The translations under genes and the position numbers were made by a program. A DNA stretch of 64,000 nt from an uncultured Phycisphaerales bacterium. GTDB taxonomy: Bacteria; Planctomycetota; Phycisphaerae; Sedimentisphaerales; Anaerobacaceae. The stretch covers positions 2,336,001 to 2,400,000 of the forward strand of contig OY970359.1 of NCBI GenBank assembly GCA_963718665.1, read 5' to 3'. The notes beneath the pieces are model-generated. The model saw only the letters and a program-made list of their open reading frames with translations, did not search any database and was not told the origin of the DNA. Below, piece after piece: positions 3,822 to 19,174 of this stretch (its first letter is position 1; each line of letters begins with the position of its first letter).

Positions 3822-4550
3822 ATGGCCTTGCGGAATATAATTGTTATCGACGAAGAAAAGTGCAACGGATGCGGGCTTTGTGCCAAGGCCTGTGCGGAAG
3901 GCGCAATAAAGATAATCAACGGCAAAGCAAAATTGGTCAGTGAGACCTATTGCGATGGCCTTGGCGCCTGCATCGGGCACTGTCCGCAAAACGCCATCAA
4001 GGTTATACAGCGGGAAGCCAAACCCTTTGATGAGGAAGCGACAAAAGAGCATCTCAGCCAAATAAAACAACAGCAGCCGGTGCCGTTTATGTGTCCCGGT
4101 ATGGTGGCCGCGCAATTGCGAAACACCCCCAAAAAATCCGATTCGACAGCAGGTGATGTCTCGTCGCAACTGACACATTGGCCTGTTCAGCTTAAACTTG
4201 TCTCCGCACACGCACCATATTTTGCGGATGCACGCCTGTTGCTCGTCGCGGACTGTGTTCCTTTTACGATGGGGGATTTCCACAGCAGATTTCTCAGGGG
4301 CCACAGCATTGTCGTTGGTTGTCCCAAACTCGATGACGCCCGTTTTTACATCGAAAAGCTCGCTGATATTTTGCAGGCCAACAAACTCAAGTCGCTGGGC
4401 GTAGTACATATGGAAGTGCCTTGTTGCCATGGTCTTACTCGAATCGCACAAGAAGCGTTGGCAAAGGCCGGAGTTGAAATGTCTTTTGAAGATGTTACGA
4501 TAGGCCTTAATGGTAGTATAAGCAAGGTCGAACAAATATCGGTTAATTGA
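3822..4550 (+). CDS. 4Fe-4S ferredoxin-domain protein (hcp-associated)
   Basis: CNGCGLCAKAC and CDGLGACIGHCP clusters; WPVQL, GCPKLD and MEVPCC in the C-terminal domain. Confidence 0.88.
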   Translation: MALRNIIVIDEEKCNGCGLCAKACAEGAIKIINGKAKLVSETYCDGLGACIGHCPQNAIKVIQREAKPFDEEATKEHLSQIKQQQPVPFMCPGMVAAQLRNTPKKSDSTAGDVSSQLTHWPVQLKLVSAHAPYFADARLLLVADCVPFTMGDFHSRFLRGHSIVVGCPKLDDARFYIEKLADILQANKLKSLGVVHMEVPCCHGLTRIAQEALAKAGVEMSFEDVTIGLNGSISKVEQISVN

Positions 4551-4573
4551 CTGGCCTTAGCCGGAGTTGATAT

Positions 4574-5587
4574 ATGACAGATTTTGTTAAATCGATAGCG
4601 ATGGGTTTCTGGAATACAGTTCTTGAGATGTCGCCATATTTGTTGTTTGGTTTTTTTATGGCGGGATTGCTCAGTGTTCTTGTATCGAAGCAGCTTGTTG
4701 AAAAACATCTCGGCGGCAGGGGGCTTTGGCCGGTGGTCAAGGCGTCTCTTTTGGGTGTGCCTCTGCCTTTGTGCTCGTGCAGCGTCATTCCCGTAACAAT
4801 GTCGCTTCGCAAACATGGCGCAAGCAGGGGGGCGGCTGTTTCATTTTTGCTCTCGACCCCGCAGACAGGCGTTGACAGCATTTTTGTTACGTATGCCTTG
4901 CTTGGCCCGGTCTTCGCTATATTCAGACCAATAGCGGCGTTTGTTACCGGCATAGTCGGCGGCGTGATGGTCAATCTTTTCGGAGATTCTCTCGAAAACG
5001 GCTCACAACAAAATCAGAGTTGCGAGGACGAATGTTGTTCCTCTGGGCACAAAACTAACCCTGTTACGCGAATATTCAAATATGGCTTTATCACGCTTCC
5101 CCGCGATATCGGCAGGGCGATGCTGCTTGGCTTAGTTGTTGCTGCCTTTATTTCAGCCCTTGTACCTGATGGTTTTTTTGCGGACAAGCTCGGAACCGGC
5201 ATTTTCCCGATGCTCGTAATGATGCTTTTTGGAATACCGATGTATGTTTGCGCAACCGCTTCGGTCCCGATAGCGGCCGCACTAATGATGAAGGGCTTGA
5301 GTCCGGGGGCTGCTTTGGTTTTTCTTATGACGGGTCCCGCTACCAACGCCGCGTCTTTTGTTACCATCTGGAAAATTATGGGCAGGGCTACGGCAATTAC
5401 TTACATCGCGGCTGTTGCCGGATGCGCATTGCTAAGCGGCATAGTTCTCGATTATATTATCGGCGGTATTATATTCGCTCATACTGCTCATCATGGCTGG
5501 ATGATGCCGCGGAATATTGAATATATTTCAGCAGTTGTGCTTTTTATTGTGCTGATGTTTGCTATAATCCATAAACCCAAAGAATAA
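4574..5587 (+). CDS. Permease (ArsP/DUF318, SO_0444-like metal efflux)
   Basis: PLCSCSVIP and YVCATASVPIA motifs, multiple TM segments, central Cys/His loop. Confidence 0.85.
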   Translation: MTDFVKSIAMGFWNTVLEMSPYLLFGFFMAGLLSVLVSKQLVEKHLGGRGLWPVVKASLLGVPLPLCSCSVIPVTMSLRKHGASRGAAVSFLLSTPQTGVDSIFVTYALLGPVFAIFRPIAAFVTGIVGGVMVNLFGDSLENGSQQNQSCEDECCSSGHKTNPVTRIFKYGFITLPRDIGRAMLLGLVVAAFISALVPDGFFADKLGTGIFPMLVMMLFGIPMYVCATASVPIAAALMMKGLSPGAALVFLMTGPATNAASFVTIWKIMGRATAITYIAAVAGCALLSGIVLDYIIGGIIFAHTAHHGWMMPRNIEYISAVVLFIVLMFAIIHKPKE

Positions 5588-5625
5588 AGGATTAACGCAC
5601 GAGATTTTTTACGGAGATAAAAACA

Positions 5626-5811
5626 ATGGCAAAGACAAGTATGCCGCACGCCGGCCACAACAAACACCTTTGTTATTTGAACAATCTTGGCTATCAAATA
5701 AGCAATCCAAAGGAATACAAGGCCCTTGTAAAGAACGCCAAATTTATATGCAAAATATGTGGCAGGGTTGCCGTCAGCGATAAAAATCTGTGCAAACCCA
5801 TAGTTCTCTGA
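5626..5811 (+). CDS. Small Cys/His-rich hypothetical protein
   Basis: GGAG RBS; HLC...CKICGR...LCKP metal-binding-like pattern. Confidence 0.65.
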   Translation: MAKTSMPHAGHNKHLCYLNNLGYQISNPKEYKALVKNAKFICKICGRVAVSDKNLCKPIVL

Positions 5812-5949
5812 CAGTTTCCTGTAAATCGGCGTCAGGGTAATTGGGTTTAATTGCAGCATTGGCGTTTCTGTGACAGTTTCTGTCAGTCATCGCGCCAAAA
5901 TACCAGCCCTTTTAGGTAGTATTACGCCCCCAAAAGAGGGTTTTCCTTA

Positions 5950-5977
5950 TCACATTCTACGGCTATTGCGCCGATAT
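5950..5977 (+). promoter_or_regulatory. Putative sigma28/FliA-type promoter
   Basis: TCAC-N16-GCCGATAT, with the same arrangement upstream of the paralogous gene. Confidence 0.5.
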
Positions 5978-6027
5978 TTTCCACAAGGCCTTTTCTTAGG
6001 CCTGTTTGTTGGGGGTTTCATTTAAGG

Positions 6028-6489
6028 ATGCGCGATCTAAAACCAATTCTTCTTTTGGAAGATGACAGCATTGATGCAATGACCGTTAAGAGGGCGTTGA
6101 AAGACCTTGATGTCAAAAATCCTCTTGTCCATGTGTTCAATGGCGAACAGGCGCTGGAGTATTTGCAGAATAGCGCCAACGCCGAGCCCTGTGTGATTCT
6201 TCTTGACCTGAATATGCCCAAGATGAATGGCATTGAATTCCTTAAGATTGCAAAATCAGACCCAAGATTGAAATGTATCCCGGTTGTTGTTCTTACCACT
6301 TCCAGGGCCGACAAGGATAAACTCGAATGTTTTGATAACGGTGTTGCCGGCTATATAGTTAAACCGGTCGATTACAAGGGATTTCTCGATGCAATGAAGA
6401 TACTCAACCTTTACTGGACACTCAGCGAATCATCTTGCAACCTGGTTGAAGGGCAGGGTGTTGAACCCCCAAAAACTGGCTGTTTCTGA
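6028..6489 (+). CDS. Single-domain response regulator (Rcp1-like)
   Basis: LLEDD...ILLDLNMPKMNG...VVLTTS...YIVKP receiver motifs. Confidence 0.92.
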   Translation: MRDLKPILLLEDDSIDAMTVKRALKDLDVKNPLVHVFNGEQALEYLQNSANAEPCVILLDLNMPKMNGIEFLKIAKSDPRLKCIPVVVLTTSRADKDKLECFDNGVAGYIVKPVDYKGFLDAMKILNLYWTLSESSCNLVEGQGVEPPKTGCF

Positions 6490-6578
6490 CCAGCAAAATT
6501 GCCGAGTCCTATAATTATTTGGAGCATTTAAACTGTTAATATGACATTATCTATTTTCCAAAAGAGCGGTTTTTATCA

Positions 6579-6606
6579 TCAAATCAGCCGTATTTTATGC
6601 CGATAT
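6579..6606 (+). promoter_or_regulatory. Putative sigma28/FliA-type promoter
   Basis: TCAA-N16-GCCGATAT. Confidence 0.5.
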
Positions 6607-6654
6607 TAAACCGGGTTTTATGCGCCACCAGTAAATTATGCAAAGGGGGCAACG

Positions 6655-7128
6655 ATGAGAAATCTCAGACCGATACTGTTTGTCGAAGACGATAACGTAG
6701 ATGCCATGACAGTTAAGCGAGCTTTCGGTGAGCTTGAAATTGTTAATGAGCTTGTCAGGGCAGTCAATGGTGAAGCGGCATTAAACTACCTGAGAGAGCA
6801 TCTCAACGAGAGGCCCTGTATCATTTTGCTCGATTTGAATATGCCTAAAATGAACGGCATAGAATTCCTCAGGGTCATTAAAGCTGATGACGAACTGCGA
6901 CAAATACCCGTAATTGTCCTGACAACATCAAAAGATGACCGCGATAAAATTAAAAGTTTCAAATCATGTGTTGCCGGCTACATAGTAAAACCGGTGGACT
7001 ACAGGGTATTCGTCGAGGCGATAAAAATTTTCGATTCATACTGGACACTAAGTGAACTGCCCGACAGCGTTCCTGAAGATACCGCTGTTGAGCTTCAAAA
7101 AACCGACTGCACCGGAACCGGCAGTTAA
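6655..7128 (+). CDS. Single-domain response regulator (Rcp1-like), tandem paralog
   Basis: Same receiver motifs; clearly paralogous to 6028..6489. Confidence 0.92.
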   Translation: MRNLRPILFVEDDNVDAMTVKRAFGELEIVNELVRAVNGEAALNYLREHLNERPCIILLDLNMPKMNGIEFLRVIKADDELRQIPVIVLTTSKDDRDKIKSFKSCVAGYIVKPVDYRVFVEAIKIFDSYWTLSELPDSVPEDTAVELQKTDCTGTGS

Positions 7129-7605
7129 AAAACAAATATATGGATACCGTCGCTCATCTCGCCGCCGGTCAATTCTTATGGTATTGATTTCCCGCCGATA
7201 ACTCACAAAAGAAACTCACTATATCTAACCTGTCCTACTCAAAAATTCATCCGGCTGTAAAAGTTAACGATTTTCGGATTCGGAGAGGGAAAAATGCTCA
7301 TTGGCAAGTTGATATTGACTGATTTGGAAAGGGCTTTCTCTGGCCGGAACGTGTTTTTTTTGCTTAATCTTCATTCTCGTACTATAAAAAATTCATACGA
7401 TGCACGAAGCGGCGCATCCTACATCAAGAGAGGGTGTAAGTTAGTTGCAAAACTAACAGGCGGTATTGCCCATTCCGATACGCTAAATCTCTCCCATCTA
7501 TGCTAAAAAACATAGTCATTTCACCTGTATTGTCTACGTTTTTGAGTTGACTTGATGAAAAGGGACGGGCCTGATGTGTGGAGGCTATTTAGAAAAGGTT
7601 CAATT

Positions 7606-8250
7606 ATGACCGCCATCTGGAAGGTAACGGAAGCAGATATTCTAAGCAGAGGGGAGGTGGAGGAAATTTGGTCGTAGCTTTGTCTAAGGTCAACCCGCTC
7701 GCGGAATGCCCGCCAGAGCCGGGTCATCTTCTGCCTGGCCGCCTTTTGCGGCCTGCGAGTATCGGAGATATGCGGCCTGCGCCTCTGCGACGTCAAATTG
7801 ACCATACGCCGTCCGGTGCTGGAGATAAGACCGCAGATTGCAAAACAGCATCGGCGACGTAGTGTGCCTCTATGGCGACTGCCTACGGCTTTGATATGCT
7901 TTTTGGATTGGAAAGCCCGGCGTCGGGAACAAGGCGCTGGCCCGCAGGATTACTTGGTTTGTGCCCAGAGCCGCTCATCACTTGGCAAACCATTAGACCG
8001 ACGCAATGCCAGGGCCCGGTTTATAGCAGCCTGTGGAATACTGGGCAAGGAACGGCAGGAGATGCTGACCATCCACACCGGCAGGCATAGCTGCGTTTCA
8101 CATCTGCTGGCCGCGGGCTGGCCGCTTCCGGTAGTACGAGATATGCTGGGCCACGCCAATTTGTTTACGACAAGCATCTACTCCCACATCGTTGTCGATG
8201 ACCTGCCTCCGCCGGACCCGTTTGCCTTTGCCAGCGAGCATGTGGAGTAA
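7606..8250 (+). pseudogene. Tyrosine recombinase (catalytic-domain type) with a premature TAG
   Basis: ATG 7606 is in frame with ORF 7798..8250, with an in-frame TAG at 7675-77. Motifs GLRVSE, HTGRH and LGHA...TT.IY. Confidence 0.85.
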
Positions 8251-8599
8251 GGGCGGGGCTTGTGACTTGAAAGCGGGTTAAAGTACGGCGGTGGAGCGTT
8301 GGGGGTACAGGGTAAAGCTGCCAAACTTGCTGCTACAGCGGTTTTTCCGGCGCGGAATCGAAAAAGTCGGGCAAAGGGGTATGAGAAGGGATCGGAGGCC
8401 GTTCGGCCATTCTACGGGCGCAAAATGCCTTTGGGGCCGACTATGCAACATTCCACAAGGTGGTTTAGCTGCGTTTTTTTCTCAAGCTCGATAAAATCGG
8501 GACACCGGGGCCAGGCAGGGCAAAGTTTTGAGGTAGTGAGAAGGTGGTTTCCTTATACGGATAGGCGAGGATTGGCCTGTATGGTCACATGGAACAGCC

Positions 8600-8628
8600 T
8601 TGCATTTTATGGCCTCTGCTGGTAGAAT
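8600..8628 (+). promoter_or_regulatory. Sigma70 promoter with extended -10
   Basis: TTGCAT, 17 bp spacer, TAGAAT preceded by TGn; purine-rich RBS before ATG 8664. Confidence 0.65.
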
Positions 8629-8663
8629 GTGGCAGTAATTGTCCTAAAGAGAAAGGGAATTTT

Positions 8664-8762
8664 ATGAATAGCCTCGCACCCGAATTACCGCCAACACAAC
8701 GAGCATACACACTGCGCCTGCACGGCGCAGAAAAAGCAAGGGGAGGAAGCCGTGAATTATAA
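8664..8762 (+). pseudogene. 32-aa ORF resembling the Cas12b (C2c1) N-terminus, truncated
   Basis: MNSLAPELPPTQRAYTLRLHGAEKARGGSREL*. PP.TQRAYTLRL.GA matches the recalled N-terminus of Desulfatirhabdium-type Cas12b. Too short to appear in the ORF track. Confidence 0.6.
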
Positions 8763-9033
8763 CCTGCTCGATGAAAAGTGGATTCCCGTTCTGTGGACTG
8801 ACGGCAAGTTCAATCATGTCGGCATCAAGGAGGCGCTTACACAAGCGGGACGGATTCAGGAGGTGCGAGACAGTTCCCCCCTTGTGACGTTTGGAATCTA
8901 TCGTCTGCTGATTGCTGTGCTGAAGTGGTTGTATAACTGCACGTCTGCACCCGTACATTTTTTGATGCTCTCAACGGTAATCTGCTTACACAAGGGCAAG
9001 GTTTCAAGACCGGTACTAATCGTGGTGGAATAG
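8752..9033 (+). pseudogene. casA: Type I-E Cas8e (Cse1/CasA) N-terminal fragment
   Basis: YNLLDEKWIPV...VGIKEAL..A..I..V.D.SPLVTFGIYRLLIAVL is the Cse1 N-terminal signature. Similarity ends after ~60 aa. Confidence 0.8.
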
Positions 9034-9090
9034 ACGTAGAATATGATGAGCCGAACGTTATCAATCTCTACTATTTTGGGAGTGATTGCA

Positions 9091-10590
9091 ATGCGATATA
9101 GAATAATTCTGCTAATTCTCCTGTTTCTGGCGACCAACTGTTGTTTTGCCGCAACTATTGTAGATGAAGCGGGTTTACGGGCGGCTGCGGCTACAGCAGG
9201 AAATAATACTATCAAGGCTAATACGACTTACGCACTAACTGATATCTGTCTTTTTAAGGGCAGTGTAACAGATGGTAATATGTCTTTCACCGTCGATACA
9301 TCGGCGGGTGATGGAAACGTTGAGATAACGAATGACGGGACTCCCAGGTCGGTGCAGGTTTGTGCGCACGCCCATAATGTGCCGATAATAATAACTTTTA
9401 CAGGCACGGCGGCAAGCCCCATTGTTTTTAATAGTAATACTGGTGTTCCTCTTCAGGTAAGCGAAGTCTATGGGGATTGGAACGACACTATGATAACGGC
9501 AACCTTTAATTACTGTTATTTTAAAGGACAACTTAGTGCCGGCGATGGTTTTAACGTGGGCGGGGCGGTTGTAAACCCTGTTGCTTTGGTTTTTAATAAC
9601 TGCAAGGCGTTCAACAATACCGGAGATGGTTTTTCGTTTTTAGCGGATAACGGGACTCCTATCAAAACGATGGTGCTGAATAATTGTGCTTCTTATTGGA
9701 ACAACAACATTAATAATGGCGGTGGTGGCACAAGCGGGTTGGGTGCGGGTGATGGCGTTACCGCCCATTCACCAAATCAAACAATAATTATGAATAACGG
9801 GAATTTTTATCAAAATGGCAAAAGCGGTATAGCCATTGTCGGCGGGGGGACGTTAATCGTTCACGATGCCAACATTTATGATAACGGCTATGCAGAACTT
9901 GTAAATAATAATGGCTATCAGGTTTATATGGAGGGAACATCCGCTCACCAGGGCGTTTGTCAGATTTATCATTCAAATATCTATAATGAAGTTGCTATTG
10001 CCCAAGCCCAACCGCTTGGCTTCGCTAATATGAATGTAACTCTGCACAATAATATAATCGATGCTGCAAACTGTAATGTCAACGACCCCGCTATAGCCAT
10101 CGATGGTAATTGTTCAGTGAATTTCAGGGGCAATATCTTCAAAAATAACAGGACATTGTATAATTATTTCATAAACGGCTCGCTGCTTTCCTCTGGCGAG
10201 ATTGCCAACAATGATTTTATCAATAACGTTCGGGATGTCAATATGGCAACACCTGCCCTGCAACTTTACAATAATATCTTCTTTAAAATGGCGGGCGATG
10301 CCAATGCTATTAACTGTTTTACAACAAATGCATACACCAATAGTTGCGGTGGCTATAATTGTTTTTATGGTTTGGCGACTGCCACTAATTATTTCAAAGG
10401 TGATAACGGCCTGAAAACGACCGATATTATAGCAAATCCATTATTCAAAGACAAAGATGCAAATGACTTCAGTTTATGGGGTTCTTCATACTGTATAAAT
10501 AGGGGTATGTCTACTCAGAGTGGTGGCTCATCAACCATCGGTGCTTGGCAACCAAAAAAGCAAAATAGCTCTGTAATACTGGCAAAATAA
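9091..10590 (+). CDS. Secreted right-handed parallel beta-helix (pectin-lyase-like) protein
   Basis: Signal peptide MRYRIILLILLFLA, Asn/Gly-rich repeats, C-terminal NPLF.D....DFSL...S.CIN.G...IGAW; AT-rich. Confidence 0.75.
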   Translation: MRYRIILLILLFLATNCCFAATIVDEAGLRAAAATAGNNTIKANTTYALTDICLFKGSVTDGNMSFTVDTSAGDGNVEITNDGTPRSVQVCAHAHNVPIIITFTGTAASPIVFNSNTGVPLQVSEVYGDWNDTMITATFNYCYFKGQLSAGDGFNVGGAVVNPVALVFNNCKAFNNTGDGFSFLADNGTPIKTMVLNNCASYWNNNINNGGGGTSGLGAGDGVTAHSPNQTIIMNNGNFYQNGKSGIAIVGGGTLIVHDANIYDNGYAELVNNNGYQVYMEGTSAHQGVCQIYHSNIYNEVAIAQAQPLGFANMNVTLHNNIIDAANCNVNDPAIAIDGNCSVNFRGNIFKNNRTLYNYFINGSLLSSGEIANNDFINNVRDVNMATPALQLYNNIFFKMAGDANAINCFTTNAYTNSCGGYNCFYGLATATNYFKGDNGLKTTDIIANPLFKDKDANDFSLWGSSYCINRGMSTQSGGSSTIGAWQPKKQNSSVILAK

Positions 10591-10690
10591 GGCGTTCTAC
10601 TTTAGATGCACATTAAATAAACGAGCAGAACAAACTTTTACAGGAATTAAATTCGAGAAAGTGAAATATAAAACGCTCATTGATTTTAAT

Positions 10691-11735
10691 TTGCTCTGTA
10701 GAAAAGATTGAAGCATAAGGTTTAGTCATGGCGATAAGTGTTAATAATAACAATAACTTAGGTTTCAGCCATAAACCGCGTTGGAAAGGATTCCACGATG
10801 GCCAAACACGGAGTTATGACCAAATCACCTGTTATGCTGGCAAAGCAGGCACTTCAGACAGCCACAACGGCACTCTCGCCATATTCAGCCAATCGCTCAC
10901 GCCACGATTTTACACAGGCACAGTTGTTCGCCATTTTGACTCTGCGACAGTTTTTTCAAACCGACTATCGTGGGATTGTACAGTTGCTGGCGGACTTCAC
11001 GGACTTGAGAGCTGCGATTGGGTTGTCAAAAATTCCTCACTACACTACCCTTCAAAAAGCACAGCAACGTCTGCTAAAAAAAGGGCTTGGGACAAGCTGT
11101 TAGCCGCCATTTTCAGTATTGCCAGCCGCGATGGCTTAATCGAGGAACGCCCCGAGGCATCCATTGATTCGACGGGGCTGGAAAGCCGGTTTGTCAGCCG
11201 ACATTTTCTAATGCGTCAAGGCAAACATACCCAGCAATATCGCCGATGGACAAAACTTACGGTTGTCTGCCACAATGCCAGCCATCTGATTGCTGCCGGC
11301 TTGGTCAGCACTGGTCCCAGCAATGATTGTTCCTACCTTATGCCGGCAGTTTCCCAGGCGGTAACTAATCTGCCTATAGACCGGCTTTTGGGTGATGCAG
11401 GATATGACGCAGAAGCCAACCATAAATTCTGTCGTCAGTATCTCGGCATCCGCTCGACGATTATCGCTATCAACAACCGACGAGGTAAAAAAGGCGAGCT
11501 TACAGGCCATTACCGAAATCAAATGAAGAATAACTTCCCGAAACGTAAGTTTGGTCAGCGATGGCAAGTTGAGAGTGTTATGTCTCGCATGAAACGTCGT
11601 CTTGGCTACGCCCTTCGTAGCCGAACGAATGAATCTCGCAGTACCGAGTGCGTCATGAGAGTTCTGACCTACAACCTGATGCTTCTCTATTTACTTTTCA
11701 TAAAGAACTTTTAATTAAAGGTTTCTACAAAGCAA
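10691..11735 (+). mobile_element. IS5-like DDE insertion sequence
   Basis: 14-bp terminal inverted repeats with 1 mismatch, TTGCTCTGTAGAAA (10691) and TTTCTACAAAGCAA (11722-35), flanking the transposase. Confidence 0.85.
10798..11714 (+). CDS. IS5-family transposase, two ORFs joined by a -1 frameshift
   Basis: orfA has PHYTTLQK; orfB has IDSTG, GDAGYD and RWQVES...KR. A7 run at 11076-82 at the junction. Confidence 0.85.
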
Positions 11736-11996
11736 TGTGATATTTGCAAAGAAGTTGTTAAAGGTGAATGCAAAACCTGCCACTTCACGAATGAACACCC
11801 CAACGAAGCCTCTCCGTAAGGCTGTGAAGATAACCGTAAAAACATCTGTTATTTTCACGGCTTTTCACACCTAACAAAAATTATTCCTAGTGTAAGTTTC
11901 TATTTTACATAGACTTCCTGCTCCTGCCATCAAGTGTGAATTTCGCATTCCCATACTCTACAAAGACCATCGAATGTTTTTTTACAGGATCTGAAT

Positions 11997-12212
11997 ATGA
12001 GGACATTATTGAGAGTGCCGGATTTAATTGAGGCTATCGAGCCGCTTGTTGGGACTAGGATTGTTGCCGATGATGTTTTCAGGCTCATCGGTAGTGGCGA
12101 CATAAAGCCTTTGGGTGTTGTCCAGAGGACGCCGGTATTCGACCTCGACCAAATTGCGGGCATAGCAGAAGTGATTAGACAGGCGGCAAAGGGGGACAAC
12201 GATGACCGTTGA
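11997..12212 (+). CDS. Small putative DNA-binding protein of the integrative element
   Basis: 71 aa, overlaps the next gene, weak excisionase-like pattern. Confidence 0.5.
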   Translation: MRTLLRVPDLIEAIEPLVGTRIVADDVFRLIGSGDIKPLGVVQRTPVFDLDQIAGIAEVIRQAAKGDNDDR

Positions 12213-12501
12213 CCGGCAGACCATAGCCCCGGCACCGCTTGTTTCTGACAGTATCCCGCCGCTTTTGGTCGATAGCCGCAGGGCCTCGCGCCTTTGTGGA
12301 ATTTCCCGTTCGTCCTGGTATTCGCTATTAAGTGCAGGCCGCATAGGGCCGCCAACGATTAAGCTGAATGGCCGGTGCTTATATAGTGTTTCGGATTTGA
12401 CGGAATGGGTCGCGTCGCGAAATCCTGAAACCGGCCTTCTACCGACACGTGAACAATGGATTGCGAGGCAAAGGCCGGAGGGAGCAAAAAGATGCCTTTA
12501 A
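12202..12501 (+). CDS. AlpA/excisionase-like HTH protein
   Basis: ASRLCGISRSSWY...P..IKLNGR.LY...L.EW. Confidence 0.8.
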   Translation: MTVDRQTIAPAPLVSDSIPPLLVDSRRASRLCGISRSSWYSLLSAGRIGPPTIKLNGRCLYSVSDLTEWVASRNPETGLLPTREQWIARQRPEGAKRCL

Positions 12502-12920
12502 TGGAATATCAAACATTCAATTTCCGGCCCGCTTCTATTGAGATTATCAAAAAGGCAAATTCGATAATCACCGCATACCAGGCCAACGGCTATGATTTGA
12601 CGCTCCGGCAGCTTTACTACCGGTTTGTTGCACGTGCCCTTAGACGAATCGCCCTGAATATGGAGCAAGTCCAACAATACAAACCACCGCCAAATTTTGC
12701 CAAACTGACTGACACTCGATGCAGTGATTATATTGCCGGGTATGGCCGTGAGTCGTGGGAGTTAGATGCACTTGACCCGAAAGTAATCTGGGAACTAATC
12801 GGTTGCGAGGTTAACAGACTTACGGACCGAACCAATCGGCAACAATTGATTGACCTACAGGAATCAGACAAACAGAAGCTTGCCTACCTTTCAGACCACT
12901 GGGAGGAAATAGGGATATGA
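12492..12920 (+). pseudogene. Phage-type Topo VI-A/Toprim-like protein with an internal in-frame deletion
   Basis: LTLRQLYY.FV is joined directly to RIALN.EQV..Y.PPPN.AK.TD.R...SWELDAL; the central EKD/DxD region is absent. Confidence 0.6.
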
Positions 12921-14140
12921 GCCAACCAAACGAAAATACGCTCTTAAAAGCCGCTTTGGAATATCACCAGCGCGGGTGGTGTATCTTTCCCGTGGTACAC
13001 GGCACGAAAAAGAAACCCTGTATCAAGTGGAAAAAGTACCAGCAGCAGCGCCCTGATGAAAACACCATCCGGGGGTGGTTTAATGGCGGGAAAAAGAACA
13101 TAGCGGTTGTGTTCGGTAAAGTATCAGGTGGCCTTGCCTGCCGTGATTTTGACACGATGCCAGAGTATGAACTTTGGGCAGGAAACCACCCAGACCTTGC
13201 AAAGATATTGCCGACAGTACAGACAGCAAGGGGTAGGCACGTTTACTTTGAGCAGAAGCAAGTTGAAGGTAGTAAAAAAGTGTCAGCCGGTGAGCTTAAA
13301 TGCAGCAAATGTTATTGTTTGCTTCCCCCATCATTACACCCGTCAGGTTCAATTTATCAATGGCTCATACCCCCGAATGATGAACTGCCTGAATTATCAC
13401 TAAAAGATTTCGATATAGCAGACTTTACAGAAGAGACAGAAGAAGTAGAGGAGACAGAAGAACCTGATGACAGTGAAGATATTGAAGCAATAAAGATTGC
13501 TTCTGTCTCCTCTGTTTCCTCAGGCTCTTCTGTTTCCTCTGTCTCCTCTGTAAACGATAGTGTTATTGTTTTTGAAAATCTTGATGTTAAAGTAAAAAAT
13601 TATGTCAACACCGCTATAAAATGCACAAGACCCAATAAAGAAGGGTATCGAAACTTTTTGATTTTTCAGTTTTGCCGGTGGTTAAAAGGCAACGCTGAAT
13701 TTGAAAAATGCCAGGCCGGACAGTTAAAACCGCTGGTCAGACTTTGGCACGAAAAGGCATTGCCGACAATTGGGACAAAACCGTTTGACGAGACCTGGGC
13801 TGATTTCTGCTATGGGTGGACACGGGTGAAATATCCTAAAGGCAGCGGTGAGCTAAAGATTGCGGTAGAAAAGGCATTAAATGCGCAAAAAAATCTTGCC
13901 GCTGAAGAACTTTACGAAATATCGGAAGTAAAGCTTTTGGTACGGGTTTGCTATGAACTTCAGGCATTGCGCAAAACCGAACCGTTCTGGTTGTCTTGGA
14001 ATGACGCTGCTTTGATATTAGGCGTAACGAAACCGACAGTGGGCAAATGGCTGAGTATGCTTGAAGCTGACGGAGTTATCAAAAAGGTTGCCGAATATAC
14101 TGCTAAACGAGCGGTGCGATATAAATTTATTGCGAAATAA
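12917..14140 (+). CDS. Bifunctional DNA primase/polymerase (Prim-Pol) replication protein with C-terminal HTH
   Basis: ALEYH.RGW.IFPV...KKP...WK.YQ, NIA...G..SG.L...DFD, T.RG.H.YF and PPS.HPSG..Y.W motifs. Confidence 0.88.
   Translation: MSQPNENTLLKAALEYHQRGWCIFPVVHGTKKKPCIKWKKYQQQRPDENTIRGWFNGGKKNIAVVFGKVSGGLACRDFDTMPEYELWAGNHPDLAKILPTVQTARGRHVYFEQKQVEGSKKVSAGELKCSKCYCLLPPSLHPSGSIYQWLIPPNDELPELSLKDFDIADFTEETEEVEETEEPDDSEDIEAIKIASVSSVSSGSSVSSVSSVNDSVIVFENLDVKVKNYVNTAIKCTRPNKEGYRNFLIFQFCRWLKGNAEFEKCQAGQLKPLVRLWHEKALPTIGTKPFDETWADFCYGWTRVKYPKGSGELKIAVEKALNAQKNLAAEELYEISEVKLLVRVCYELQALRKTEPFWLSWNDAALILGVTKPTVGKWLSMLEADGVIKKVAEYTAKRAVRYKFIAK
13424..13554. repeat. Inverted 9-bp iteron array inside prim-pol
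   Basis: ACAGA(A/G)GA(A/G) units on the left and their reverse complements on the right, around GAAGCAAT-aaag-ATTGCTTC. Confidence 0.8.
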
Positions 14141-14151
14141 AAAATATGTGC

Positions 14152-14179
14152 TTGACAATATAGCAAGTATGTGTATGAT
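14152..14179 (+). promoter_or_regulatory. Sigma70 promoter for XRE-integrase
   Basis: TTGACA, 16 bp spacer, TATGAT with TGn. Confidence 0.6.
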
Positions 14180-14185
14180 TGAGGT

Positions 14186-14392
14186 GTGATTTTGGAACGT
14201 ATAGCAGAAGCCATTGAAAAGTCGGGTAAGACCAGATACCAGATTGCACAAGAAACGGGTATCGACCAGGCGGTGCTTTGCAGGGTAGTTTCTGGTGGCA
14301 GTTGCGGCACAAAAACCGCCGATCTTCTTTGCAAGTATTTGGGGCTGGAGCTTACGCCGAAGAAGCTAAAACGAAAGGCAGGCGCAAAATGA
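14186..14392 (+). CDS. XRE/Cro-like HTH regulator
   Basis: SGKTRYQIAQETGIDQAVL.R...TAD.LC.YLGLEL. Confidence 0.85.
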   Translation: MILERIAEAIEKSGKTRYQIAQETGIDQAVLCRVVSGGSCGTKTADLLCKYLGLELTPKKLKRKAGAK

Positions 14393-15860
14393 GAGTTTTC
14401 AGAACATCATACAGAGACAAAGGCGGGGAATTCCACGAAGTCAAAAACTACTACGTCGAGCTGCGGGACCATTTAGGAACCGTTCGGCGTTTTCCGGCCT
14501 TTGTTGATAAAATGGCGTCCGCGGCGCTTGGCCGACAGATAGAACGGCTTGTATCTTGGAAGGTTGCAGGTGAACAGCCGACACCGGAATTGACACGCTG
14601 GCTTGAGGGAACGCCACAGAGTTTGAGAAAACGGTTTGCAAAGATAGGACTTCTCGATGCTGAACGTGCAACCGGTGGACAGCCCGTTGCCAAAGTCGTC
14701 AAGATAGGAAATAAAGAGGTTTTGAAAGATTGTTTGCTTGCCGACTTTGAGCGTTCGTTGCTGGCCGGTGGAGATACGGTTGCACAGGTCGAACTAACCG
14801 TTGGCAGGTGCAGGCGGATTGTCGAAAAATGCAGGTTTGCTGCGTGGACGGATATATCGGCAGACGCCGTGAGCCGCTATATTGAGAATTTACAAGGCAA
14901 AGACGGTTTGAGCAAGAGGACGGCAAACCATTATCTGCGGTCAATAAAGCACTTCTGCCGGTGGATGGTTAAGCAGCGAAGGGCAAGCGAGTCACCCTTG
15001 GCACAACCTTGACTGCGTGTCCGTCGAAACAGGCGATATACGACACGGACGACGGGCACTTGAGCCGGACGAGATTCGCCGATTGTTAGAGGCAACGGCA
15101 ACACAGCCGATGCGTTATGGTCTGACAGGGCGGGAGAGGATTTTGTTGTATCGGCTGGCAGTTGAAACGGGTTTGCGACGAAACGAGTTACGTTCTTTGA
15201 AGGTGTTGTCGTTCGACTTTGAGGGCTGCACAGTCACGGTTGAAGCGCAGCATACAAAAAATGGCAAGCTGGCCGTGTTGCCTTTGAGGGTGAATACGGC
15301 GGCGGAGCTAAGGCAATTTGTAGCTGGTAAGCCGCCGAATACGCAAGTTTTCAAGGTCCCGGGCGCGACTGCAAAGATGTTCAGGATTGATTTGAAGGCT
15401 GCTGGTATCGACTACGTTGATGAATCAGGGCGGTATACGGACTTTCCACTCACTGCGACACACCACAGGGACGCTATTGGCTGCTGCCGGTGTTCACCCG
15501 AAAACGGCGCAGACCCTTATGCGACATAGCGATATAAATCTGACAATGAGCCGATACACGCACACGCTGACCGGTCAAGAATCCAGAGCGGTTGAAAGTT
15601 TGCCGGACCTGTCCACGCCGAGCCGACAATCACAGCGGGCGGTTGCTACGGGGACAGATGGGAAAAACTTGGTGCGTTTCTTGGCGCTTGATACCGGAAA
15701 ACATCTGACTACATCGGACACGGTTGGACAGGAAAACCGCATTGTCGATAGTAAAAACGCATTATCTACTGCGCCCGGCCAGATTCGAACTGACGACCTC
15801 CGGTTTAGGAAACCGGCGCTCTATCCTACTGAGCTACGGGCGCGACCGCCCCTATTATAG
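14389..15860 (+). pseudogene. Tyrosine integrase split by two frameshifts
   Basis: Fragments 14389..15012, 15017..15529 (TGLRRNEL, TKN) and 15417..15860 (FHSLRHT, MRHSDI.LTM.RYTH). Shifts near 15008 and 15446. Confidence 0.88.
15770..15843 (-). tRNA. tRNA-Arg(CCT)
   Basis: GCGCCCG/CGGGCGC acceptor stem, anticodon arm CCGGT-TTCCTAA-ACCGG, TTCGAAT T-loop. CCA not encoded. Confidence 0.96.
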
Positions 15861-15919
15861 GGGAAAGCGAGTTTTTTTGAAGAAGAAAAAGTAGAGCTTG
15901 GTATGTTTCAAGTAAAATT

Positions 15920-15950
15920 AAAGAAGCCGGCTATAATACCGGCTTCTTTT
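15920..15950. terminator. Intrinsic terminator
   Basis: AAGAAGCCGG-N8-CCGGCTTCTTTT. Confidence 0.75.
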
Positions 15951-15970
15951 GGTTGTTGTGTTGCCTGCCG

Positions 15971-16549
15971 CTAATAGATTATAGCGGTTGCTTCTTCAAT
16001 TTTGCGGACGACCTCGGAAACGTCCGCGGGCATAGAAACATACCCGTCAAACCCTTTCTGCAGTAATGCCGCTGCTTCACCTCCTCCCAGGTGATTCACA
16101 AGGGCGATTACCTTGATGGTCTGCAGCTCTTCGTCCGACCGGATATTCCTGCATATAGCCTCTGCGTCGATGTCCGTTGCCAGCAGGTTCACAAGCAAAA
16201 CGTGCGGCTCGAATCTTTGGACCGCGGTTCCCGTCTCAAAGTTGTTTTTCGCAATGCTCACTTCGTAGTCCGATTTGGCCTTCAGCGTCTCCGCCAGTTT
16301 TGATGCCGACTCGACATTGCTATCGACTATAACAACCCGCATTTTGCCGACGGGAACCGCCGGCACCGGCATATTATTCTGCTTCATAAACCGAATCAGT
16401 TCGTTAACTGGTATCCGTCGGTCTTTGCTTCCCGGTATCCTGTAGCCCTTCAACTGCCCGCTGTCGAACCATTTAGACACTGTTCTCGGCGCGACGTTGC
16501 AAATCTTCGCTACATCACCTGTCGTTAATACGTTCTTGCCTTTTGCCAT
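15971..16549 (-). CDS. Excisionase-type HTH + receiver domain regulator
   Basis: LTTGDVAKICNVAPRTVSKWFDSG.LKGYRIPGS.DRRIP followed by a degenerate receiver domain. Confidence 0.9.
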   Translation of the reverse strand: MAKGKNVLTTGDVAKICNVAPRTVSKWFDSGQLKGYRIPGSKDRRIPVNELIRFMKQNNMPVPAVPVGKMRVVIVDSNVESASKLAETLKAKSDYEVSIAKNNFETGTAVQRFEPHVLLVNLLATDIDAEAICRNIRSDEELQTIKVIALVNHLGGGEAAALLQKGFDGYVSMPADVSEVVRKIEEATAIIY

Positions 16550-16810
16550 TTTTATATTCCTCTTCAGGAGTGGTTTTTTGCCACTTGCACGTGATTTATC
16601 GGCTTTACCATATATGCCGTTTAGGACAACCGCCCCATTTCCAAGCCGTATTACTGATATTGGCCTTCGCCTCTATTACTACGTCCTATAAGCCGAAACA
16701 GTTCCTGACGGCAAAAATAGGGCGGGCAGAAAGTATTTGGCAAATTTGGGTCTGAACAGTAAAATCCATCTTTTCGTATAACCTGCATTTGATGCTTTAA
16801 GGAGCCGTGT

Positions 16811-17929
16811 ATGCGTATATTTTTGTCTCGTCCTGACATTACTGACAGGGAAATTCAGGCAGTTACCGATGTGCTCAAAAGTTCAAACCTTTCACTTGGC
16901 CCGAAACTGGGCGAATTTGAGCAGGCCTTCGCTAAATATATTGGCAGGAAACGAGCAGTCGCTGTCAACAGCGGAACAAGCGGCCTGTATCTTTGTATGC
17001 TTACCCTGGGTATCGGGCCGGGTGACGAGGTAATCACAACGCCGTTTACCTTCATCTCCACTTCCAACGTTGTGCTTATGGCGGGGGCCAAACCCGTCTT
17101 TGTTGATATTGACCCGGTAACTTTGAACATCGACCCGGATAAAATTGAACAGAAGATAACAAAAAAAACGAAAGCGATTATTCCTATTGAGGCCTTTGGC
17201 AGTCCCGCTGGCTTCGATAAATTTCGCCGGATTGCCGACAAGCACAAACTCGCCTTTGTCGAGGATAGTTGCGAGGCCCTCGGTTCCGCGTTAAATGGCA
17301 AAAAAGCCGGCACTTTCGGCGATATTTGCGTCTTCGCGTTTTACCCCAATAAGCAAATTACCACCGGCGAGGGCGGCATCATTCTTACCGACGATGATAA
17401 ACCTGCGGATATGTGTATCTCGTTGCGTAATCAGGGCAGGGCGGCGGGTGGTAGCTGGCTCAGCCACGTGCGGCTGGGCTATAATTATCGCCTCAGCGAT
17501 ATCAACTGCGCCCTGGGTATCGTGCAGCTTTCAAGAATCGAGGAAATAAAACGCAAACGCAAACAGGTCGCCAAATGGTATCAGGAAAACCTTGCCGGCG
17601 ATGACCGCCTGATTGTTCCGACCGAACCCGCCGGCTGTGATACCAACTGGTTTGTCTTTGTTGTTCGCCTCGCAGACAGGTTTACTCGCCAGAATCGCGA
17701 AAATGTTTTGCAGACGATGCGCGACGCCGGCATACAGGTCAGCAACTATTTCACGCCCGTTCATCTCCAGGCGTTTATGGTCGAGCGTTTCGGCTTCAAG
17801 CCGGGCGATTTCCCCGTAACCGAGAAAATCGCCGAAAGGACCATAGCATTACCGTTCTACAATAATCTCAGCAAAGATGAAGTAGGTATTGTCTGCGATG
17901 AGCTTCGCCGAGCGATTGACAAACTTTAA
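16811..17929 (+). CDS. DegT/DnrJ/EryC1/StrS PLP aminotransferase
   Basis: AVNSGT, EDSCEALG, FYPNKQITTGEGG and GYNYR motifs. Confidence 0.95.
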   Translation: MRIFLSRPDITDREIQAVTDVLKSSNLSLGPKLGEFEQAFAKYIGRKRAVAVNSGTSGLYLCMLTLGIGPGDEVITTPFTFISTSNVVLMAGAKPVFVDIDPVTLNIDPDKIEQKITKKTKAIIPIEAFGSPAGFDKFRRIADKHKLAFVEDSCEALGSALNGKKAGTFGDICVFAFYPNKQITTGEGGIILTDDDKPADMCISLRNQGRAAGGSWLSHVRLGYNYRLSDINCALGIVQLSRIEEIKRKRKQVAKWYQENLAGDDRLIVPTEPAGCDTNWFVFVVRLADRFTRQNRENVLQTMRDAGIQVSNYFTPVHLQAFMVERFGFKPGDFPVTEKIAERTIALPFYNNLSKDEVGIVCDELRRAIDKL

Positions 17930-17949
17930 AAATTGCACTTACAGTGCAT

Positions 17950-17981
17950 AAAAAACGCCGTCCCTAAGGGACGGCGTTTTT
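17950..17981. terminator. Bidirectional terminator between convergent genes
   Basis: AAAAAACGCCGTCCC-taa-GGGACGGCGTTTTT. Confidence 0.85.
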
Positions 17982-18001
17982 GTATTTGGAAAGGATACGT
18001 A

Positions 18002-19174
18002 TTATTTGGGCAACTGGTCCTCAGTCATCTCGCGCACCGTCAGGTCCGCGTATATGACGCGATACATCTGGCTGCCGGCAGGGCGATACCAGAATATCGG
18101 CATATCAGGGGTATTTATCTTCACACCGTTACCCGCATACCGCCACTTGCTCTCCTCTCTGGGCAGTTTGGCCACGAAAAGCAATGCATTGAACATCTGT
18201 TGAGGATTAGCCTTGTCCCACGTAGAGCCTTTGAGCTTGCCCTGTTTGGCCATTTCCATACAGACCTTGGCAAGCTCCGGTCCGGCTACCATCGGTGGGA
18301 AGGTCTCATCGGTATTTCCATTGGCCCACCATCCCAGGAAAGCGACAAATATCTCTTCCGTCTGGAGAGCATCATCGGCTTTCATCTCGGCGCCCATCGG
18401 CTTGTATCCTGCCGGAGGTGTCAAACTGAACAGCGAATCCTCCAGTTCAACATCGAATCTGATATTCTTTATTATCGTGTTCATGCCCGGGGCGCTGGCG
18501 TACTTGTGTTCCACTTGCACAAGGTCGCCGGATTTTGCGTCCAGCCAGATTATCGAGGTCAGGTCGCCTTGTGTCACTCTGTATCCTTCGCAGTCAATGC
18601 CGTCTATCTCCTTTGCTCCGAGGTTCTCATCCGCCTTTGCCGGCAGGTTCCTCATCGCCTCGAAAGATGCGAAGGGTCCGGAGTTACCTGTTGGCTTGAG
18701 GCTGTTTAAGTCGCCGATGGAATACCCGCCTTGCGGCACAATGGACATCGCCTTGCCGCTGTTGGCATCCAATATCACAACGTAACCGTCGATCGTTGTC
18801 GTTCGCAGGAAACCTGGCTCTTTGTATGCCACGTCCACTTTAATCGTTTCGCCAGTGCCGGTGTTGGCCTGCTTTATTACCGTGTATACTACCGTGCGGG
18901 CATTCTTTATCTCCTGCACAATCTGGGCATAGGCGTTGGTTCCTGTCAAAAAGTGAACGCATAACAGGCCGGCGACAACAATGACCGCCGCTGCCAATTT
19001 TGTTATTCTGCTCTTCATAATAATTCTCCATATATTCGCCTTCTCGTAAGGCGTTGGGATTCCTGTTTGTTCGTGTGCTTTCATTGCGTCGTCTAAAATC
19101 TGTTTTCGCAATTCGGCACCGGCTGAAAAATTCATTTTTTTTACTGAACTTTCTATCTTTTCTGACGGCCTCAT
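18002..19174 (-). CDS. Putative anti-sigma factor with LolA-like extracytoplasmic domain
   Basis: IWRIIMKSRITKLAAA + TM helix; LG.KEIDG..C.GY, WLD.KSG and F.L.PP.GY motifs; coupled to an ECF sigma. Confidence 0.75.
   Translation of the reverse strand: MRPSEKIESSVKKMNFSAGAELRKQILDDAMKAHEQTGIPTPYEKANIWRIIMKSRITKLAAAVIVVAGLLCVHFLTGTNAYAQIVQEIKNARTVVYTVIKQANTGTGETIKVDVAYKEPGFLRTTTIDGYVVILDANSGKAMSIVPQGGYSIGDLNSLKPTGNSGPFASFEAMRNLPAKADENLGAKEIDGIDCEGYRVTQGDLTSIIWLDAKSGDLVQVEHKYASAPGMNTIIKNIRFDVELEDSLFSLTPPAGYKPMGAEMKADDALQTEEIFVAFLGWWANGNTDETFPPMVAGPELAKVCMEMAKQGKLKGSTWDKANPQQMFNALLFVAKLPREESKWRYAGNGVKINTPDMPIFWYRPAGSQMYRVIYADLTVREMTEDQLPK

Follow-up and report, generated by a model that had tools for sequence, protein, structure and literature searches.

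The window (the whole stretch of 64,000 nucleotides that was analysed) contains two short ORFs which overlap by 11 nt on its forward strand. The upstream ORF runs from an ATG to a TAA at 8760-8762 and encodes a 32-aa peptide, MNSLAPELPPTQRAYTLRLHGAEKARGGSREL, and the downstream ORF starts with a GTG, ends with a stop codon at 9031-9033 and encodes a 93-aa protein; both are read directly from the sequence and the ORF list (Table 1). The first-pass annotation had described a 32-aa ORF overlapping the GTG start of a Cas8e fragment and both ORFs are indeed present, with the qualification that a start had been placed 1 nt off.

Table 1. Positions of the two ORFs, their constituent parts and the surrounding island in the window
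Feature	Position	Strand	Basis or remark
Island at the 3' end of tRNA-Arg(CCT), 8.5 kb	7231..15769	.	flank comparison with genus relatives
Tyrosine integrase, C-terminal fragment	7798..8250	+	Pfam Phage_integrase E 4.8e-16, positions 59-168 of 172
Promoter-like hexamers TTGCAT-17-TAGAAT	8600..8628	+	weak: 3/6 and 5/6
32-aa ORF	8664..8762	+	cas12b codons 1-23, then predicted cas8e ribosome site and start in the +1 frame
cas12b-derived stub (assigned by homology), 23 codons	8664..8732	+	PDB 9kln_A, tblastn, blastn, N-terminal HMM
Left junction, cas12b-derived / cas8e-derived DNA	8733..8737	.	blastn homology limits, L143 alignment
cas8e 5' untranslated leader with Shine-Dalgarno GGGGAGGAAG	8738..8751	+	87% identity to L143
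cas8e-derived stub, 60 codons	8752..8931	+	Pfam Cse1 1-61 of 450; L142, L143
93-aa GTG ORF	8752..9033	+	Cas8e stub plus 33 residues without detected family
Right junction	left edge of filler, about 8932		spanned by contigs from X1, X2, X3
Filler of unknown origin	8932..9020	.	between cas8e stub and 5' region of next gene
IS element, DDE_Tnp_1 transposase	10683..11750	+	Pfam; blastn against genome
Split integrase, three ORFs, near tRNA-Arg	14278-15860		Pfam
tRNA-Arg(CCT), integration target	15770..15843	-	ARAGORN; Rfam tRNA 70.9 bits

Both ORFs lie on DNA that has been inserted at the 3' end of a tRNA-Arg(CCT) gene, as delimited by querying 14 kb of DNA against relatives and comparing the two flanks (window 4500-7230 and 15770-18500). 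The site is empty in seven genus relatives, where the flanks are 0-13 nt apart, and the same spot holds 2.8, 3.5 and 43 kb in three other genomes. The island carries the C-terminal fragment of an integrase, the two cas gene fragments, an IS element, HTH_17 and Prim-Pol genes, a secreted protein gene without family and, next to the tRNA, a second integrase, whose SAM-like N-terminal part and two catalytic pieces fall into three overlapping ORFs, so that it is probably frameshifted. The IS element with its DDE_Tnp_1 transposase is present in seven copies in the genome, the island copy and six others, and their 99-100% identity in blastn suggests that it was probably active recently. Within the island there are no att-type repeats of the tRNA of at least 14 nt, and a search of the region with Rfam returns only the tRNA above the gathering score. 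The island is a decayed mobile-element site.

Two parts of the island recur elsewhere. Its first 145 nt (7231-7375) are 90% identical to a sequence at genome position 817848-817991 and 88-92% identical to sequences in five genus relatives, and its first 700 nt (7231-7929) have an 86% identical copy at 2116014-2116715. The recurrent start could represent either a small element or an island end that is repeated. Further downstream, a 69-nt non-coding stretch (8397-8465) is 74% identical to a sequence of a genome of the same order (G039) with a near-identical core of 30 nt, and no ORF of G039 covers its counterpart. The predicted fold of the conserved stretch at 8385-8480 is no better than that of shuffled sequences (z -0.04).

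The 32-aa ORF had been described as lying behind an intact promoter, a description that is not borne out. The predicted hexamers TTGCAT (8600-8605) and TAGAAT (8623-8628) are present at a spacing of 17 nt, and they match in 3/6 and 5/6 positions, or 8 of 12, which is below the threshold of the promoter scan (4/6 per hexamer and 9/12 overall, at which 0.8 sites per kb are expected by chance) and explains why the pair is absent from the scan list. Judged by its sequence, the pair is a weak match at chance level.

Identity of the two cas gene fragments

The 93-aa protein matches the Pfam family CRISPR_Cse1 (PF09481) with an E-value of 4.3e-15 and a score of 56.3 bits (cut-off 24.7), and the PADLOC profile of Cas8e with an E-value of 1.4e-13, which confirms its proposed identity as the N-terminus of Cse1/Cas8e. 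The match spans only residues 4-64 of the protein, corresponding to profile positions 1-61 of 450. With the NCBIfam profile of the full-length equivalog of about 500 aa (TIGR02547) it scores 39.4 bits against a cut-off of 70.05, over positions 1-56 of 504, as is expected of a product that holds a fragment. The nearest relatives are encoded on metagenome contigs and show 68% identity over 60 aa (L142) and 64% over 59 aa (L143). The similarity to L142 stops after LLIAVLKWL, and the likeness to Cas8e ends after residue 60, nucleotide 8931.

L143 is an intact, canonical type I-E locus in which cas8e is followed by a 169-aa ORF, cas7e, cas5e, cas6e, cas1 and an array of 68 repeats; the 169-aa ORF occupies the position of cse2 and has no Pfam match. 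Here cas8e is the first I-E gene, and the tested ORFs upstream of it match no cas family. At the DNA level the window is 87% identical to L143 (8738-8859 against 9987-10108); this homology starts 14 nt upstream of the GTG, and its first ~75 nt, with the Shine-Dalgarno sequence, are near-identical. Matches resembling cas8e N-termini occur in 16 of 400 other genomes of the phylum, and the upstream regions of 17 genomic and eight metagenomic cas8e genes were inspected. Another member of the phylum (G364) carries a second, truncated cas8e N-terminus at G364:C3:1988776-1988901, a 59-aa frame that is 40% identical to the window stub and is followed by a full-length cas8e after about 470 nt.

The 32-aa peptide begins with the motif TQRAYTLRL-x-G, which is found at the N-terminus of a large family of Cas12b proteins of about 1500 aa, including ChCas12b. 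Its sole match in the PDB is ChCas12b itself (9kln_A, 1496 aa, E 1.6), of which residues 6-19, STQRAYTLRLQGTD, align with peptide residues 10-23. Neither the 32-aa peptide nor the enclosing 57-aa ORF has any match in Pfam, NCBIfam or PADLOC, including the Cas12b profile NF033949 / C2c1_RuvC-like, and a word-indexed search of the 57-aa ORF against longer proteins returned nothing at E<=10. The profile comparison that the first-pass annotation had proposed for both peptides thus gave a Cse1 match for the 93-aa protein but no Cas12b match for the 32-aa peptide. The reason is that NF033949 begins only downstream of the motif, by 20-40 residues, and starts at residues 29 and 46 in two intact Cas12b proteins. 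Relics of this kind therefore escape profile searches.

Evidence for the assignment comes from the motif itself. The nine residues were back-translated into a degenerate DNA pattern, which matched at least 119 stretches in genome_contigs. Among the matches listed, TQRAYTLRL is in frame mostly near the start of an ORF, and at least 36 of the ORFs are longer than 1300 aa with the motif at most 120 residues from the start of the frame. These large ORFs stem from MAGs labelled Planctomycetota, Phycisphaerae, Hydrogenedentota, Acidobacteriota and others, and both of those scanned score as Cas12b equivalogs in NCBIfam (E 1.7e-303 and 0). Altogether, about 100 ChCas12b-type proteins among the motif-fetched matches listed (loci L005-L123) carry the motif close to their start, although they diverge otherwise. 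By tblastn the stub matches about 100 cas12b loci of the motif-matched loci listed, the best of them (L044) with 80% identity over 20 aa; homology to cas12b genes at the DNA level is limited to 8688-8735 in blastn, and the peptide is colinear with Cas12b N-termini up to about residue 23. In two Phycisphaerales loci an array follows directly after cas12b, without adaptation genes in between.

A chance resemblance over nine residues, which would leave the cas8e stub as the only true relic, is extremely improbable. It could account for the PDB E-value of only 1.6, and by our own calculation one random occurrence of the pattern is expected in about 1.7e10 positions, which gives tens of random matches in 596 Gb and means that some of the at least 119 stretches are such matches; 13 of the 119 loci listed lack a Cas12b context, and L038, L045 and L046 look like chance. 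In the 2.6-Mb genome, however, where only about 3e-4 occurrences are expected (own calculation), the pattern is present once, and it is found in two of 401 genomes of the phylum against none of 401 for the reversed-pattern control. The similarity also continues past the motif, with PELPP before it and H-G-A after it as in the Cas12b family, in which the G is invariant. The ATG with its ribosome site lies 10 codons upstream of the motif, the usual distance in a family where TQRAYTLRL-x-G stands about 10-50 residues from the start. When an HMM built from 36 intact Cas12b N-termini was searched against the 74,182 six-frame ORFs of the organism's own genome, the 32-aa stub ranked first with an E-value of 0.0029, the runner-up having 0.45. 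Finally, the stub sits 5 nt from another cas fragment. On these comparisons the homology of the stub to the Cas12b N-terminus is accepted, in agreement with the original proposal.

The junctions and the surrounding genome

The cas12b-derived DNA (to ~8732) and the cas8e-derived DNA (from 8738) meet within about 5 nt. As homology to cas12b ends by 8735 and homology to the cas8e of L143 begins at 8738, the left junction is placed at 8733-8737. It follows that the tail of the 32-aa ORF, KARGGSREL, is by its alignment the predicted Shine-Dalgarno sequence and start codon of cas8e read in the +1 frame, because the homology to L143 already starts at 8738 and cas8e is the first I-E gene there. The same REL followed by a stop appears in the corresponding frame of L143 and of the truncated cas8e copy of G364, a recurrence explained by its being the +1 frame of V-N/S-Y/F-N. 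The tail had been ascribed to the gene preceding cas8e, possibly cas3, and this origin is ruled out since the homology to the L143 cas8e leader covers it. An internal deletion of cas12b that kept the tail of the gene was likewise rejected, as the C-termini of 36 intact Cas12b proteins are unlike EKARGGSREL.

To the right of the cas8e stub, the filler from 8932 to about 9020 has no significant match in blastn or tblastx, and from about 9006-9021 onwards the 5' region of the following gene takes over, which is shared with the genus relative G016. Compared with the fetched loci by tblastx and blastn, the flanks of the composite (8251-8663 and 8925-9045) show nothing significant except the 69 nt in common with G039 and the gene start in common with G016.

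Both junctions are real features of the organism's DNA, and the idea that they are assembly chimeras is scarcely credible. The source is of the metagenome type, and the same runs contain six other contigs that match only 8742-8797 with five differences (91% identity) and then diverge; these are the 5' ends of cas8e genes of other organisms and could mislead an assembler. Against this, the left junction is spanned by contigs from runs X1 and X2 and the right junction by contigs from X1, X2 and X3, all without differences (X1 8060-9600; X2 8354-8857 and 8863-9600; X3 8756-9041). All three runs come from a single study, and the assembly itself may derive from X1; the Logan contigs from X2 and X3 that cross the junctions are independent.

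The remainder of the two systems is missing from the genome, which is a single contig of 2.61 Mb. It contains no second Cse1 match, and no Cas12b body is found either with seven full-length queries (E<=0.01) or with NF033949. The I-E proteins of L143 return by tblastn only Cas8e residues 1-59 (E 1.8e-18) and two chance-level matches with E-values of about 0.5, and the parts of a type I-E system that were sought, cse2, cas7e, cas5e, cas6e, cas1 and an array of 29-nt repeats, are lacking. The genome is also devoid of CRISPR arrays and of repeats of the V-B or I-E type; the array with 36-nt repeats ending in GACAC that adjoins cas12b in many relatives has no equivalent here. Among 40 relatives, 23 of them of the same genus, Cas12b scores above the cut-off in one, a genome of the same order, and Cse1 in none, so that neither protein occurs in any of the 23 genomes sampled from the genus.

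Origin of the composite

The stretch is very probably a composite relic of two CRISPR systems on a decayed mobile island, and it is almost certainly without function. According to this reading, an island integrated at tRNA-Arg would have brought in CRISPR-Cas genes foreign to the genus, of which deletion or illegitimate recombination would have spared two pieces only: the start of a ChCas12b-type cas12b, comprising its upstream region and 23 codons, and from a type I-E cas8e the first 60 codons preceded by their ribosome-binding site. These pieces lie head to tail, with the join at 8733-8737, and the 32-aa ORF would be an accident of this join in which translation from the cas12b ATG reads through the Shine-Dalgarno sequence and start of cas8e in the +1 frame and ends at the TAA within cas8e codons 3-4. 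The rest of the operon would have gone with a second break, behind codon 60 of cas8e at about 8932. A search for the undeleted, parental allele found none, and for this reason we infer the history of the deletions, including their order and mechanism. The lack of function is likewise an inference, whereas the identity of the stubs, the positions of the junctions and their presence in independent contigs, the limits of the island and the loss of every other cas component are shown directly.

The first-pass annotation had envisaged type V-B and type I-E genes in tandem on an island followed by deletions. The joined stubs do lie on an acquired island from which the rest is gone, but no hybrid locus was found: among the matches listed, 118 motif loci (1.12 Mb) contain no Cas8e N-terminus and no other I-E genes, and 43 cas8e loci (290 kb in total) contain no Cas12b, which speaks against the intact V-B/I-E hybrid that had been anticipated in relatives. 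The only sampled genome with both systems (G287) has them on separate contigs (C70 and C255), at least 9 kb apart if linked at all, as a complete V-B locus (cas12b, cas1 and an 11-repeat array) and a complete I-E locus (cas8e to cas1 with a 15-repeat array), and both arrays are at contig starts.

That the mini-Cas8e of 60 N-terminal residues, or the 32-aa peptide, might be expressed as a decoy or anti-CRISPR borne by the island had also been suggested, and is very unlikely. Anti-CRISPRs derived from Cas proteins do exist: AcrIB3 resembles Cas5, AcrIB4 resembles the C-terminal domain of Cas8b, and the two form conserved clades with 45-49 homologues outside cas loci (preprint 10.1101/2023.06.24.545427). 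The stubs would be suitably placed on a mobile island with both ORFs open. A conserved family of mini-Cas8e proteins is lacking, however. Besides the window's own, 5.8 billion clusters hold four short Cse1-like proteins (53-125 aa), each on a single contig of only 650-1504 nt and therefore probably cut by the contig end rather than stand-alone homologues. Viral contigs hold no cas stubs either, their four pattern matches being one cas12b at a contig end and three sequences without Cas12b context, and their single Cse1-type match a full I-E operon. In addition, one third of the 93-aa product has no similarity to Cas8e, the promoter match is weak, and the genome offers neither a I-E nor a V-B system as a target; none turned up in the 40 relatives either, save for the Cas12b of one genome of the same order.

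A further explanation concerns the left join itself, which is tidier than a random collapse would lead one to expect: it retains a start codon, a plausible ribosome site for the 32-aa ORF and the whole Shine-Dalgarno sequence and start of cas8e. In addition, both reading frames are open, and a gene caller recorded the 93-aa product. A closely similar arrangement is found in a MAG of candidate division WOR-3 (L047, DSBX01000223.1, 700-1110, minus strand). Here a cas12b 5' stub, beginning MAQQTTQRAYTLRLKGA and running to TQRAYTLRLKGA, breaks after LRLKGA about 30 nt before a strong ribosome site and the ATG of cas6, and its ORF, which like the 32-aa ORF is in the +1 frame relative to the next gene, ends about 14 nt inside cas6. 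Cas6 is full (Pfam E 1.7e-57) and is followed by Cas3_HD, so the cas6-cas3 operon is intact, and the L047 genome contains no Cas12b body. In two unrelated genomes, then, the gene that opens a class 1 operon is immediately preceded by a cas12b 5' stub, and the presence of the same stub before an intact operon suggests that the left join may once have been selected. The body of cas12b could have been replaced by a class 1 operon that is expressed from the cas12b promoter, with the stub of 18-23 codons acting as an overlapping leader ORF in translational coupling; the window would then be a later-collapsed case in which the I-E operon was destroyed by deletion. We regard this replacement as unlikely. 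It would be consistent with the breakpoints, as three of five genuine short stubs, among the N-terminal-motif loci listed, break at HMM positions 21-24, a few codons past the motif. These positions correspond to the boundary between the OBD and helical-I domains, which lies at residue 18 of ChCas12b, with aa 1-18 assigned to the OBD (PMC12204704). The clustering is a lead rather than a result given the small numbers.

Only two such cases exist, however, and a search anchored on the N-terminal motif can find only fragments that keep the N-terminus. No tandem or replaced V-B/class 1 locus, and no cas6/cas3 of the L047 type, appears in the other 118 motif loci listed. The other short stubs abut IS fragments or lie before a NACHT gene: L113 breaks after LRLRGV into an IS3-type HTH_21 (E 2.1e-16), L043 after about 38 codons into the C-terminal fragment of a Mutator-family transposase (E 1e-8), and L007 after about 30 codons, with a 2089-aa NACHT/AAA protein about 150 nt further on whose gene adjoins an MmeI-type restriction enzyme. 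The stubs of L113 and L043 are joined to junk and are comparable to the one in the window as understood under the reading of a decayed composite. A broader proposal, which we consider doubtful, concerns the 5' module that ChCas12b-type genes form with their promoter, their ribosome site and the first 18-23 codons up to the OBD/helical-I boundary. This module would serve as a recurrent joint at which other defence cargo, class 1 cas operons among it, takes the place of the effector body. Such an operon would be driven by the cas12b promoter with the stub as leader ORF, L047 being a living example and the window a collapsed one. If true, such a joint would provide a route for replacing CRISPR effector modules with retention of the promoter and would bear on the turnover of defence islands.

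Comparison with known systems

Read as a composite relic, the stretch is a small fossil indicating that a genus without CRISPR-Cas (0/23 sampled) probably once acquired class 2 and class 1 genes and then lost them. For annotation, the 93-aa protein called "Cse1" here does not amount to a CRISPR system in the organism.

Like the Cas12b proteins of the ChCas12b type (type V-B; PDB 9kln-9klq, Li et al. 2025, PMC12204704; NF033949), the upstream stub has the N-terminus TQRAYTLRL-x-G-A. Unlike them it keeps 23 of about 1500 codons and lacks the helical, RuvC and Nuc domains as well as the array and the adaptation genes. The downstream stub shares N-terminal residues 1-60 and the native Shine-Dalgarno sequence with Cse1/CasA/Cas8e (PF09481, TIGR02547), the large subunit of the type I-E Cascade, but is truncated after 60 of about 500-550 residues. 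With the Cas-derived anti-CRISPRs AcrIB3 and AcrIB4 it has in common that it is a short homologue of part of a Cascade large subunit on a mobile element; it differs from the AcrIB4 type in corresponding to the N-terminal and not the C-terminal part, in being fused to unrelated sequence and in having no conserved family. There is also a parallel with the gene fragments that serial integration, IS activity and deletion leave behind in tRNA-linked genomic islands: the locus is inserted at the 3' end of a tRNA gene, contains the remnants of two integrases and a probably recently active IS, and has an empty counterpart in relatives. What sets it apart from the usual fragments of this kind is that the 5' ends of two effector genes of different CRISPR classes lie within 5 nt of each other, an arrangement that has one look-alike, L047.
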